A stretch of DNA of 64,000 nucleotides from Octopus vulgaris (Eukaryota), in NCBI GenBank assembly GCA_951406725.2, contig OX597822.1:103230001-103294000 (forward strand), in the 5' to 3' direction. Of this stretch, positions 7,012 through 50,960 are shown one piece after another. The notes beneath the pieces are model-generated. The model made no database searches and was not told the origin of the DNA. It saw only the letters and a program-made list of their open reading frames with translations. Both the position numbers and the translations under genes were made by a program. The first letter of the stretch is position 1. Each line of letters starts with the position of its first letter.

Positions 7012-7330
7012 AAAGTTAATCCAAACATGAAAACACAAAGAGAAAACACAAGAACGCGAGGACGTGGAACAAGTATAGTATTGTTGGACGCTCAGGAAAG
7101 AAGGAGGGTTTAACGTTTCGAGCGGAGCTCTTCGTCAGAAACATAGGAAAAGGAAAGATCCAAAGACGGGAAGACGGAGGAAAAAAAATCGCCAACGGTA
7201 CACACGCGGTCACATTTTGTATGACCGGAAGGGAATGGGTGAAGAAAAAGTTCTTTCAAAGACAGGAGAGTGCAAGAGGAGGTATGTGTGTGTAAGTGTG
7301 GATATGTGCGTGCGCGCAGGTCTGCGTGTG
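7012..7330 (-). mobile_element. PLE-type terminal fragment with minimal hammerhead motif (7109-7141)
   Basis: Minus strand TTT-CTGACGA-A-GAGC-TCC-GCTC-GAAA-CG-TT-AAA. Near-identical copy at 35735-35925. Confidence 0.7.
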
Positions 7331-7819
7331 TGTGTGTGTGTGTATGTTTGTGTGTCTGTGTTTGTCCCCCCCACCCAACATCGCTTGGCAACCGATGGTG
7401 GTGTGTTTACGCCCCCGTAACTTAGCGGTTCGGCAAAACAGACCGATAGAATAAATACTAGGCTTCCAAAGAATAAGTCCGGGAGTCGATTTGCTCGACT
7501 AAAGGCGGTGCTCCAGCATGGCCGCAGTGAAATGACTGAAACGAGTAAAAGAGTCCATCAAAAAGTTAAAAACTTATTCATTTAGTCCGATTTCTGCATT
7601 TCTTTCGTCATTTTCCTTATTCTTTCGTTCTTTGATCAAAGTCTTATAAGAAACTCGGACATAAAGTCTATTTTTTACGTCGTTTCTTCGCGAATAACCT
7701 CCTGATAACGACAATCTTTTCCGAGAAATCCTCGTTTGCATTAATTCAATGTCTCCACAATTTCAGTTCTCTGAACGTTTCCAAAGAAAGATTGGTGATC
7801 ATCAAAATCTGGGGGCTTG

Positions 7820-8253
7820 CTCTTTACTCCTTTACTTGTTTCAGTCGTCTGACTGCGGCCATGCCGGAGCACCGCTTTTAGTCGAGCAAATCGACCCCCA
7901 GGACTTATTCTTTGTAAGCCTAGTACTTATTCTATCGGTCCATTTTGCCGAACCGCTAAGTTACGGGGACGTAAACACACCAGCATCGGTTGCCAAGCAA
8001 TGTTGTGGTGGGGGACAAACACAGACAAACAAATACACACACACACACACACACACAATGGACAAACAAGGACAGACAAACGGATTAAGTCGATTATATC
8101 GACCCCAGTGTGTAAACGGTACTTATTTAATCGACCCCGAAAGGATGAAAGGCAAGTCGACCTCGGCGGAATTTGAACTCAGATCGTAGCGACAGACGAA
8201 ATACTGCTGAGCATTTCGCCCGGCGTGCTAACGGTTCCGCCAGCTCGCCGCCT
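7820..8253 (-). mobile_element. SINE A 3' half (7820-8056) abutting a SINE B (8058-8253)
   Basis: Identity to other copies in the window. Confidence 0.85.
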
Positions 8254-8274
8254 TCATCTATTGTAATACTGGAT

Positions 8275-8661
8275 GATGGAAGCACTCCGTCGGTTACGAC
8301 GATGAGGGTTCCGGTTGATCCGATCAACGGAACAGCCTGCTCGTGAAATTAACGTGTAAGTGGCTGAGCACTCCACAGACACGTGTACCCTTAACGCAGT
8401 TCTCGGGGATATTCAGCGTGACACAGAGAGTGACAAGGCCGGCCCCTTGAAATACAGGTACAACAGAAACAGGAAGTAAGAGTGAGAGAAAGTTGTGGTG
8501 AAAGAGTACAACAGGGATCACCACCATCCCCTGCCGGAGCCTCGTGGAGCTTTTAGGTGTTTTCGCTCAATAAACACTCACAACGCCCGGTCTGGGAATC
8601 GAAACCGCGATCCTACGACCGCGAGTCTGCTGCCCTAACCACTGGGCCATTGCGCCTCCAC
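8275..8661 (-). mobile_element. SINE family C (about 390 bp, tRNA-Arg-like head; OR1-like)
   Basis: Head TGGAGGCGCAATGGCCCAGTGGTTAGGGCAGC, B box GGTTTCGATTCCC, tail ...CGACGGAGTGCTTCCA. Confidence 0.9.
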
Positions 8662-9342
8662 AATTACTGTACTATCTATTATATGACCGACGCACTAAGG
8701 ACTTTACCTTCTGGAATAGTTTATTTCTTATTGTAAATTCAGAAACATCAACACCAACTGTTTCACATTCAGTAAATAATTCTGTAACAAATGGTTATGT
8801 TTTCTTAAAAACTTGTTTATGAGGAATTCATCGAGTAAACACATTCATTGTGGAGGCGCAATGGCCCAGTGGTTAGGGCAGCGGACTCGCGGTCATAGGA
8901 TCGCGGTTTCGATTCCCAGACCGGGCATTGTGAGTGTTTATTGAGCGAAAAACACCTAAAAGCTCCACGAGGCTCCGGCAGTGGTTGGTGATCCCTGCTG
9001 TACTCTTTCACCACTCTTTCTCTCTTTCTTCTGTTGGCCTGCTCGCTTAGCCAGCGGGGTGGCGTCATTTGAAGGCCAAAACAGTGTGACCAGCGATGTG
9101 TAAAACATCTGATGGTCTGGTCGGTCACGTGATCACGTGATATGGCTGACATAATTACTGTACTATCTATTATATGACCGACACACTAAGGACTTTACCT
9201 TCTGAAATATTTTCTTTGTTATTGTAAATTCAGAAACATCAACACCAACTGTTTCACATTCAGTAAATAATTCTGTTACAAATCGCTATGTTTTCTTAAA
9301 AACCTGTTTATGAGGAATTCATCGAGTAAACACATTCACTGT
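8662..9342 (+). repeat. About 190-bp direct duplication (8662-8851 / 9153-9342) flanking a chimeric SINE (8851-9152)
   Basis: Both copies run AATTACTGTACTATCTATT...GAGTAAACACATTCA with few mismatches. The insert has a C head and a different tail ending CACGTGATCACGTGAT. Confidence 0.92.
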
Positions 9343-9630
9343 TGCTGCATAAAGAGTCTACACTCTGTCCGTAAATTGTTAAATTTTTATAAATCCAAAT
9401 ATTTTTCAATTCTATTCTTTTTCGGAACGCTAATTAATTAAATTTTGTTAATTAGCTTACTAGCTTTAAAAGCCGTGTGGACTTTTAAGCTAGTTCTTGA
9501 GGAAGGCTAATTGCACCTGCGGCCCAAAATTACAGGGAGCGACAATAATAAAGCATTTATTGATACCCTTTAAACTCAGTTTAAATGAAAAACACAAATT
9601 TTTAGAGTTCTTTGAAAATTCGAATTTTCA

Positions 9631-10023
9631 ACTCTTTTACTCTTTTACTCTTTTACTTGTTTCAGTCATTTGACTGCGGCCATGCCGGAGCACCGCCTTT
9701 AATCGAGCAACTCGACCCCGGGACTTATTCTTTTGTAAGCCCAGTACTTATCCTATCGGTCTCTTTTTCCGAACCGCTAAGTAACGGGGACATAAACACA
9801 CCAGCATCGGTTGTCAAGCAATGCTAGGGGAACAAACACAGATACACAAACACACACACGCATATATATGTATACACATATACGACGGGCTTCTTTCAGT
9901 TTCCGTCTACCAAATCCACTCACAAAGCTTTGGTCGGCCCGAGGCTATAGAAGACACTTGCCCAAGGTGCCACGCGGTGGGACTGAACCCGGAACCATGT
10001 GGTTGGTAAACAAGCTACTTACC
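9631..10023 (-). mobile_element. SINE A
   Basis: Full head, microsatellite and tail. Confidence 0.92.
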
Positions 10024-48825: not shown

Positions 48826-48843
48826 TTAAGGGTATACGTGTCT

Positions 48844-49008
48844 GAGTTCAAATTCCGCCGAGGTCGACTTCGCCTATCATCCTTTCGGGGTCGATAAATT
48901 AAGTATCAGTTACGCACTGGGGTCGATATAATCGACTTAATCCGTTTGTCTGTCCATGTTTGTCTTCTCTGTGTTTAGTCTCTTGTGGGTAGTAAAGAAA
49001 TAGAAATA
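48844..49008 (+). mobile_element. 5'-truncated SINE B nested in the same SINE tail
   Basis: TSD GGTATACGTGTCTG on both sides. Confidence 0.88.
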
Positions 49009-49159
49009 GGTATACGTGTCTGTGGAGTGCTCAGCTACTTGTACGTTAATTTCACGAGCAGGCTGTTCCGTTAATCGGATCAACTGAAACCCTTATCGTC
49101 GTAAGCAATGGTGTGCCAGTATACATGTTTACCTGTCAAATCTTTGAAGTGAGCTGCAG

Positions 49160-49664
49160 CCACTAATCATGAAATAGACGTTGTATCAAATTATATTGTA
49201 CGAGCAAAACGTCCCCGTCTTTGGTTTTGTTAAACGAAGTTAAGGCAAAAAAAAAAAAAAAAAACTTCTCGAGAAACCAAATAGTCCTTCCTTCCCTCAT
49301 GCCAAGTTTAAAGAAAATACTTCTTTTGCATCTTACTTTTTGGGTCTCTAAAATAATGTACTGCATTTTGTGGCATTATTTCAAGCCAGCCGGCTTTTTT
49401 TTGCGCAAACTGCACGTGCATTTTTCTTGCGTACGCGTAGTATCGATCGCAACAGCTGATGTACTTGCGCATACAAATGCACGTTCCCACGGCTTTATCG
49501 ATCGCATTCTCACCTGGAATCAACTTTTGTAATTTTTTCAAGACTTATACACGCCCTGATACCATCGGTATCTACATATCAAATTTGAGCGCAATCGGAT
49601 GGAGGATGCCCGAGATCCTAGAAGACACACACACAGACAGACTAAACGGATTTTATATAATAGA
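49160..49664 (-). mobile_element. Helitron-like non-autonomous fragment
   Basis: Minus strand TCTATTATATAAAATCCG...GTCTGTCTGTGTG...CCGATTGCGCTCAAATTTG start. No clear CTAG end. Confidence 0.5.
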
Positions 49665-50430
49665 TAGCGTGGTTATGAGAATAGGATAAATGGGTTGTTA
49701 AGATTGGTGGTGTATATTTATTTCCCTAAATTTAATGCATTAGAATTACGAGAGATACAACTGGTTAACCTAATGGAACTACCCATATTTCCGATTAGCC
49801 AGTTACACTTCCGCCTAACTTCATATAGAACTGCTGATATTCCCGCTTTGAATGTTCATTGTTGTTAGTCTTGCTAATCTGACAACACATCAAATATCAA
49901 CATGCATACGATTGACCCGAGGATTTGGGAGATTATTGTATTGTAACGTATTTCACAACTGAACGCACGATGTTACATCACAATAAAATCTCTTAATGAA
50001 ACATTGTAGCGTGAAAATATAATCTATTCGTCTGTTTTTATTACATGCGTGTACATGCGTATGTATGTGTGCCTGTGCTTGTCACCCTACCCATTGGCAA
50101 CCGGTGTTAGTTTGTTTACGTCCCCGTAACTTAGCAGCTTGGAAAAATAGTCCTATAGATTGAGTACTAGGCTTAAAAGTAAGTACTGGTGTCGATTTGT
50201 TCAGCTAAACCTTTCAAGGCAGAGCCTCAGCATAATTGCAGTTGAAACAAGTAATGTATATATATATATATATATATATATATATATATATATATATATA
50301 TATATATATATATATATATATATATATATATATATATATATATATATATATATATTCCCCAAAGGGAATTTACTGTGACACAGTGATTTCCCTTTGTTTT
50401 AACGGTCATTTTCATAGCATTTTTTTCGAT

Positions 50431-50496
50431 GGCCAGATAACTGAAGAGATGCCGGCGTGGATTTCCGACATCCGAAATTCAGAGTTTTATCATGGC
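50431..50496 (+). ncRNA. Hammerhead-like motif in a (TA)n-flanked PLE-type fragment (50355-50595)
   Basis: GATAA-CTGAAGA-GATGCCGG..CCGACATC-C-GAAA-TTCAGAG-T-T-TTATC. Confidence 0.6.
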
Positions 50497-50857
50497 TACC
50501 GAATAATTGTCACATACTATATTTACAGATAAATTCCTCTATTTACATAATATCGAGGTCTCTTTCATTCTTTTGTTGTCTTCCATTTCTATCAATATAT
50601 ATATATATATATACACACACACACACACACACACACACACACATATATATATATATATATATATATATATATTTAAGTAGTTGAATGAATTATCTTAGTA
50701 TGGATAATTCGGTTAACCGACACCTGGGTATCTTCTACATTCAACCATTTTTGACGTCACTGCTTATAACGGAATATTTTAAAGAAACACTCATTATCGC
50801 TATGGACTCCGTGTGGACAGCCATCTAAGAGTTTTTGTTCATCTTGATGCTGACATA

Positions 50858-50960
50858 AGTTCCTTGTTTTTCCTGATGAGAAGGCGGCATAATGCACCCC
50901 TTATTCCTTCGAAATTAGGAATATGCAGCCTTCGAAACATATGTCGAGAATAAAGGAATT
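50858..50960 (+). ncRNA. Canonical type I hammerhead ribozyme motif with GUC cleavage triplet
   Basis: TTTTC-CTGATGA-GAAGGC...GCCTTC-GAAA-CATATG-T-C-GAGAA. Extended stem I AGTTCCTT/AAGGAATT. Lies in a (TA)n-flanked fragment of about 330 bp. Confidence 0.8.

Follow-up and report, generated by a model that had tools for sequence, protein, structure and literature searches.

Type I hammerhead motifs in a 64-kb stretch of the Octopus vulgaris genome as probable ends of Penelope-like elements and of two retrozyme-like units

A stretch of 64,000 nucleotides from Octopus vulgaris (GenBank assembly GCA_951406725.2, contig OX597822.1, positions 103,230,001 to 103,294,000 of the forward strand; the whole stretch is called the window here) contains many motifs shaped like hammerhead ribozymes, which a preliminary description had attributed to several families of Penelope-like elements (PLEs). 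These type I hammerhead folds very probably lie in the 3' terminal repeats of about ten PLE families, present as short, 5'-truncated and sometimes mirrored copies. They were likely written into TA-rich DNA by the reverse transcriptase (RT)-endonuclease of the elements, while two non-coding units, termed E and C, likely act as parasites of this machinery in trans.

Hammerhead motifs and element copies in the window

The window has a GC content of 37% and is rich in microsatellites; the genome comprises 2.8 Gb in 227 contigs. Families are designated by letters and loci elsewhere in the genome by numbers preceded by L. The copies recognized, with their predicted element types, are listed by position in the window:

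7013..7325 (outer limits approximate), minus strand: truncated copy of family A, from the 3' end of a Neptune/Nematis-type PLE; minimal hammerhead 7138-7112; (TA)n end
16147..16590, no single strand: family C fold-back made of two arms of a 460-nt non-coding unit in inverted orientation; hammerheads 16329-16281(-) and 16410-16458(+)
22240..22323, plus strand: B-type copy, 82% alike to 33752; variant core CUGCAGA at 22245-22272
25231..25760, plus strand: family P, Hydra-type PLE; endonuclease C-terminal relic 25231-25524, 3' untranslated region (UTR), decayed hammerhead 25695-25726 without GAAA
26727..26984, no single strand: family H fold-back, one arm of which bears a tail; variant core UUGAUAA...GCAA at 26868-26839(-) and 26891-26920(+)
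31900..32960, minus strand: family Q, Hydra-type endonuclease relic and 3' UTR; decayed hammerhead 32066-31987; (TA)n end
33706..33876, plus strand: family B33 copy; family-wide variant core CUGUAGA at 33756-33783; (TA)n end
33896..34260, no single strand: family D fold-back, Neptune/Nematis-type PLE end; U3-A8 hammerhead 34149-34178(+), mutated mirror 33981-33952(-), tail on the right arm
35010..35488, no single strand: family E fold-back formed by inverted arms of a non-coding 354-nt unit, the left arm with a tail; both cores, 35264-35232(-) and 35283-35315(+), are cut at their 5' edge
35735..35925, plus strand: family A copy; hammerhead 35806-35832; (TA)n end
50400..50595, plus strand: family F copy, terminal repeat of a Hydra-type PLE; hammerhead 50441-50486 with bulged stem II
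50673..51000, plus strand: family G copy (50730-51000) after an inverted tail fragment, Hydra-type PLE end; hammerhead 50873-50945 with long branched stem II
56880..57400, minus strand: Hydra-type PLE coding relic with the CxCX5C linker motif; no hammerhead found with the relic

Both strands were scanned with a strict type I descriptor (CUGANGA or UUGANAA, stem II of at least 4 bp, GAAA, stem III, UH, stem I of at least 3 bp), and the chance level was taken from 30 local dinucleotide shuffles. Seven motifs pass, at 7138(-), 16329(-), 16410, 34149, 35806, 50441 and 50873, against a shuffle mean of 0.1 (maximum 1); with a first version of the descriptor, 5-6 motifs were found in the window against 0.05-0.15 in shuffles. 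Including the mirrored arms and one additional site, the window holds 16 hammerhead-region copies, of which the same seven pass.

The preliminary description had placed hammerheads at 11 sites. Related sequence lies at, or within about 30 nt of, every one of them, but only six satisfy the strict descriptor. The remaining five fail because of an altered first box (CUGCAGA at 22245, CUGUAGA at 33756), a deleted GAAA box (25695), GCAA in place of GAAA together with a stem I of 2 bp (26891), or a lost strand of stem I (35283); in this last case and in its partner 35264(-) the cores are intact, and the 5' strand of stem I is gone from both arms at the inversion junction. Furthermore, the mirrored arm at 33981(-) has a C3-A8 mismatch, and an extra decayed hammerhead, absent from the earlier list, lies at 32066(-), downstream of the coding relic at 32040. 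The four sites described as mirrored are real inverted pairs, and the coding relics proposed at 25227, 32040 and 56930 are likewise all real. Most motifs do lie beside (TA)n, as had been claimed: a (TA)4 run follows 14 of the 16 cores at a distance of 53-325 nt, with none within 600 nt for 22272 and 34178.

Families across the genome and their coding relatives

Ten families (A, B33, C, D, E, F, G, H, P and Q) were searched in the genome, with at most 30 top-scoring loci read per search. At first look, each family had between 92 and 3,277 candidates, which are lower bounds and not copy numbers. The notion that stems are unrelated between families is correct only in part: 7109 and 35803 form one family (A, 84-87% alike), 22241 and 33752 are 82% alike and have stem II in common with each other and with family A, and 26891 and 34146 have the same 3' end.

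The hammerhead core is widely conserved within families. Both core boxes are canonical in 27/30 E, 23/25 C, 22/25 G, 21/25 D and 16/20 F copies, and the full hammerhead pattern fits 19/30 copies of family A. Families B33 and H lack the canonical core, with CUGUAGA in 19 of 20 B33 copies and the GCAA form in 19 of 20 H copies; such core changes probably lower ribozyme activity. Family P, in which the 40 best matches are 72-83% alike and only two of ten pattern-matched copies keep both boxes, is old. Stem covariation within families, which had been anticipated, is found in family C. In an alignment of 62 rows, unfiltered for structure except for one added row, 96.3% of the stem cells are paired and 24 cells carry two-sided changes, a value reached by none of 500 shuffles, with only 3 of the 20 pairs contributing. 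For D and E, covariation was assessed by eye only, on descriptor-selected rows.

The abundance of these motifs was estimated from forty 10-kb stretches (400 kb) at fixed round coordinates on C1-C20, a small and not strictly random sample. It contains 8 descriptor matches against 0.6 in shuffles, so that the predicted excess over shuffled sequence is found both in the window and elsewhere, and the density amounts to about 18 per Mb by this descriptor. In addition, 16 core-covering relatives of the window's families were found, most frequently B33-like ones (6 of 16). Scaled to 2.8 Gb, these counts correspond to about 50,000 descriptor-passing motifs (roughly 20,000-105,000) and about 110,000 core-covering relatives (roughly 65,000-180,000); in the window, the density is about five times that of the sample. 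When 1.43 Mb of fetched loci were scanned with a relaxed descriptor, 199 motifs were found in 29 clusters, 19 of which are singletons, some of these probably due to chance. Further hammerhead families with unrelated stems were noted in flanking DNA at L260, L008, L030, L151, L326, L330, L335, L338 and L346.

Eight families are the 5'-truncated 3' ends of PLEs that bear open reading frames (ORFs), both of Hydra type and of Neptune/Nematis type. Each runs, upstream or downstream, into sequence that encodes RT or GIY-YIG in at least one locus, which upholds the suggested link to PLE ORFs. Near-full-length but broken copies of P (L091) and G (L167) consist of an inverted 5' arm, the ORF and the 3' repeat, and tblastn matches occur at 21/30 P loci and 16/25 G loci. 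Family D has an inverted 5' copy, ORF and 3' repeat at L169 and endonuclease matches upstream in L145 and L154, and for family Q an endonuclease relic adjoins within the window itself. In the other four families, the tie to coding sequence comes from no more than one or two loci each: 1 of 25 long-copy loci for A (L195), 1 of 20 for B33 (L310), 1 of 20 for H, via an inverted arm (L333), and 2 of 20 for F, with an ORF downstream at L338 and an endonuclease upstream at L341. The coding copies examined are broken or 5'-truncated. Family A was also considered as the end of the ORF at L168, and this was rejected, as only a TA tract is common to both.

Element types were assigned by published motif definitions (Craig et al., 2021; PMC8557442; this and the other papers cited below were accessible in part, and statements on them extend to those parts). 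Hydra motifs are present in L091 (RWK, DKT and CxCX5C), L338 (RWK and DKT), L167 (DKT only) and the 57-kb relic (CxCX5C), and by these definitions P, F, G, Q and the 57-kb relic would be Hydra-type. Families A and D would be Neptune/Nematis-type by the CX2-5CxxC linker in the loci tied to them, with DKG in the related L168 ORF, and B33 and H are placed with them only by the likeness of their endonuclease pieces to L168. These labels replace provisional ones (Neptune for P/F/G/Q, Poseidon for A/B/D/H). In Pfam, L168 matches RVT_1 (E 2e-8) and L167 matches GIY-YIG with E 7e-4, under the curated cut-off; the RT of L167 is not recognized by Pfam. Many relatives of the L168 RT combine RVT_1 with GIY-YIG, and for a PLE RT from this genome, most of the named relatives stem from molluscs or mollusc-associated samples. 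In the family G protein, RT and endonuclease are separated by a long asparagine-rich stretch (L167:2150-2890).

Insertion footprint and the non-coding units E and C

Within each family examined, the copies have one fixed 3' end and a variable 5' end. The 3' ends were classified for 195 copies of eight families, a set that includes the window's own copies and a few overlapping loci: 110 lie directly on TA, 37 carry a tail, 7 lie on AT-rich sequence, 20 on other sequence, and in 21 the end was not found. The background is 9% for a span of 28 nt. No tail was scored for A, B33 or F in this set, and the tails of E, which the pattern missed, were recounted separately. Copies also land in each other's TA flanks, with B33 beside D and E beside A, which likely explains their clustering.

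Inverted truncated arms are frequent: 50 E loci contain 20 such pairs, and 53 C loci contain 19. The two arms of a mirrored copy trace to the same source subfamily, given that subfamily alleles are alike at 67/78 sites in E (62/73 without one doubly counted pair) versus 0.59 in random copies, at 56/59 sites in C versus 0.58, and at 29/43 sites in F versus 0.50; D, G and H have too few sites. An origin of the two arms from different source RNAs is not supported by these shared alleles. Near-perfect fold-backs with the same palindromic junction were seen at L317, L318, L319 and L321 (4 of 17 family H loci), which suggests either that the junction is a hotspot or that the fold-back is mobile as a whole.

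Units E (35283, 354 nt) and C (16405, 460 nt) are non-coding and resemble non-LTR (long terminal repeat) retrozymes in anatomy. The tail of both is the start of the sequence upstream of the hammerhead, and therefore each forms a closed unit, 354 or 460 nt long. The longest ORF starting with methionine has 32 aa in E and 43 aa in C, none of the 30 E and 25 C loci inspected showed a linked PLE ORF, and one C locus has an unrelated element downstream. Among the data sets listed as containing matching sequence, none is recorded as RNA, and four that were inspected consist of contigs, which show neither RNA ends nor RNA level. The GC content is 45% in E and 32% in C, and the lengths of 354 and 460 nt compare with a retrozyme range of about 170-400 nt and a GC content under 45%. 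Both units carry the Penelope footprint, namely a fixed 3' end, an optional tail and an inverted truncated arm, and their copies are continuously truncated at the 5' end. The idea that short copies are non-autonomous, retrozyme-like families thus stands for these two of the ten families searched, but not for the eight others, which are truncated ends of ORF-bearing elements.

Partial tandems and dimers are common among junction-selected E and C loci, and C has both partial and full dimers. At L356 (G000:C4:13619800-13625200), a young array holds 10 full E-type units, about 99% alike, and a 63-nt 5' piece. All ten cores are intact, 7 columns vary, TA lies on both sides, and the array has the fixed 3' end of the E family; compared with the E copy of the window, both strands of stem III and of stem I are changed. 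Two shared variants, at unit positions 11 and 348, are interleaved among the units and therefore argue against a single monomer circle for that locus.

The 5' ends of the copies were considered as marks of the predicted cleavage site. This was rejected, since starts lie within 5 nt of the site in 0/30 E and 2/30 C copies, the queries being wholly downstream of it. Longer-than-unit copies run past the upstream predicted site at 10/22 E loci (the array counted once) and 25/30 C loci, with queries that favour long copies. One of the sampled stretches contains a pair of identical U3-A8 hammerheads at a distance of 362 nt (L281:8667 and 9029, minus strand), which probably belong to a third retrozyme-like family.

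Other features of the window include small palindromes beside TA runs (35530-35634 and 50356-50396), which have no hammerhead core and are possibly fold-back ends of other elements. An abundant SINE-like (short interspersed element) repeat of about 185 nt, which we take to resemble an octopus SINE, occurs in tandem copies at 12870-13427, 19992-20487 and 43779-44147 and is dispersed through the window too. Further ORF pieces at 4156-4617(-), 5183-5773(-), 55953-56450(-) and 26125-26481(+) are presumably relics of LINEs (long interspersed elements) and of a mariner-type transposase. An 850-nt (AAT)n-type array lies at 29426-30271, and an interstitial degenerate (TTAGGG)n run at 16911-16952.

Proposed mechanism and comparison with known systems

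Following the mechanism described for Poseidon (Frangieh et al., 2024; PMC11167929), we propose that the PLE protein nicks AT-rich DNA on both strands and that reverse transcription would start at two internal sites of an uncleaved RNA. Cutting of both strands combined with internal initiation would explain why the end is fixed, why the tail lies on one side and why the arm is mirrored. E and C would parasitize this machinery in trans, and because their copies read straight through the predicted cleavage site, their template likely spans one or more hammerheads, either as an uncleaved multimer or as a religated circle. In the source elements, the predicted ribozyme would serve at most for the processing of multimers; among the genomic copies, many are decayed. 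A bolder version, which we consider possible but rather doubtful, treats E and C as retrozymes whose templates are RNA circles made by the ribozyme and copied by an internally initiating Penelope RT, and holds that the changed core of the abundant B33 family would show catalysis to be dispensable for autonomous elements and kept in parasites.

Several observations weigh against an origin of the motifs from PLE ends and their trans parasites. No Rfam family reaches its gathering score anywhere in the window and no hammerhead family appears in two short Rfam E-value scans of it; the models miss all window hammerheads, and the Rfam matches, among the 150 of 246 listed, are microsatellite- and hairpin-driven ones of miRNA type only. 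Single-strand folding of six short motifs gives mostly unremarkable z values (-0.2 to -2.7), and none of the six reaches the full active form. Two-sided change affects only 3/20 family C pairs, a number as high in 83/500 shuffles, and other covariation measures for this family are inflated by related copies. The ORF links of A, B33 and H come from one locus each, nested insertion into shared TA tracts can mimic linkage, as for A at L168, and clade names rest on motifs, not on a tree. Moreover, no convincing partner element for E or C was found among the 8 ORF-linked loci, and E is less TA-bound, with 28 copies divided into 6 on TA, 9 with a tail, 5 on AT-rich and 6 on other sequence, and 2 whose end was not found.

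Alternatively, E and C could be satellites that arose from a PLE terminal repeat and spread by tandem amplification and recombination at the DNA level, with no retrotransposition in trans. The two interleaved variants of the 10-unit array, which are not expected from a single monomer circle, would fit this origin, and local amplification is discussed in a recent preprint (Li et al., 2026; 10.64898/2026.07.22.740005). We nevertheless regard it as improbable, as E and C copies are dispersed over many contigs with one 3' end in common and have tails, inverted truncated arms and continuous 5' truncation. Still less credible is that all short copies are independent non-autonomous, retrozyme-like families. 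Most copies do measure 150-450 nt without coding sequence, and E and C are such families, but eight of the ten run into RT or endonuclease sequence with variable 5' truncation, and P, G, D, F and Q already contradict this reading. Chance matches in AT-rich repetitive DNA, to which one of the eight descriptor matches in the 400-kb sample (L272) and perhaps some relaxed-scan singletons may be due, are practically negligible as a general explanation in view of the 70-fold excess over shuffles, by which this reading is refuted, the family-wide core conservation in E, C, G, D and F, the position of the motifs in PLE ends and the two-sided stem changes.

Copying by PLE proteins remains the preferred reading, and much of its background is in print. 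Hammerheads in PLE repeats, the U3-A8 core, opposite-strand pairs, TA targeting, tails, inverted copies and mollusc retrozymes have been reported (Cervera and de la Pena, 2014; PMC4209133; Cervera and de la Pena, 2020; PMC7229834; Craig et al., 2021), and the derivation of retrozymes from PLEs is put forward by Li et al. (2026). Literature searches, with subscription papers and preprint supplements outside reach, found no paper on cephalopod hammerhead repertoires or on a PLE footprint of retrozymes. The present data would add evidence from a genome for the movement of retrozyme-like units by Penelope machinery, a modest gain as regards mechanism. The way in which animal retrozymes move and the role of PLE hammerheads are open questions in the accessible literature (Cervera and de la Pena, 2020; Craig et al., 2021; Li et al., 2026). 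Here, a single genome combines autonomous Hydra-type and Neptune/Nematis-type elements with young retrozyme-like units that carry the PLE footprint, which makes trans-mobilization testable with defined RNAs and start sites, and natural core variants fixed in whole families (B33, H) are available. If E and C were indeed copied from circles, the proposed partnership of retrozymes and PLEs would be proven directly in the genome by their thousands of insertions with this footprint.

Minimal type I hammerheads are known from the terminal repeats of metazoan PLEs (Cervera and de la Pena, 2014). The octopus motifs share with them the CUGANGA/GAAA core, the U3-A8 variant, an extra base after A9 and a short palindromic stem III, as well as the many sequence families per genome, mostly as single truncated copies, and the opposite-strand pairs. 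In contrast, several octopus families have a long or branched stem II, and two have fixed core changes (CUGUAGA and GCAA); the density of about 18 per Mb was obtained with a descriptor other than that of the earlier study.

The families P, F, G and Q and the 57-kb relic agree with Hydra-clade PLEs in RWK, DKT, CxCX5C, a C-terminal GIY-YIG, the (TA)n target and canonical hammerheads, and the supplement of Craig et al. (2021) contains a TA-targeting Hydra element, Hydra-1_Obim, from Octopus bimaculoides. Family G differs by having DKT without RWK in the piece examined and an asparagine-rich linker, the assignment being by motifs. With Neptune/Nematis PLEs (Craig et al., 2021), the octopus elements share the CX2-5CxxC linker (A and D), the tail, the inverted 5' copy and the microsatellite bias; Neptune, Nematis and Penelope/Poseidon are not told apart here, and the label rests on motifs, or on similarity only for B33 and H.

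The fixed end and tail recur in Poseidon of Anolis (PAc), where they result from internal initiation (Frangieh et al., 2024). In PAc, each of the two strands is cut and extended, the RNA used is mainly uncleaved, and in the accessible text no reads end at the cleavage site. PAc is autonomous and was tested in vitro, whereas the octopus families are known from sequence alone.

Animal non-LTR retrozymes have been proposed to be moved by PLEs, a link argued from co-occurrence and homology (Cervera and de la Pena, 2020; Li et al., 2026). E and C differ from them in occurring mostly as dispersed monomers and partial tandems with a PLE footprint, known here from genomic DNA alone, and C, at 460 nt, exceeds the range of 170-400 nt, within which the mussel units measure 350-390 bp. 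Both groups nevertheless have in common non-coding tandem units of a few hundred nucleotides, each with one type I hammerhead (Cervera and de la Pena, 2020; Li et al., 2026).

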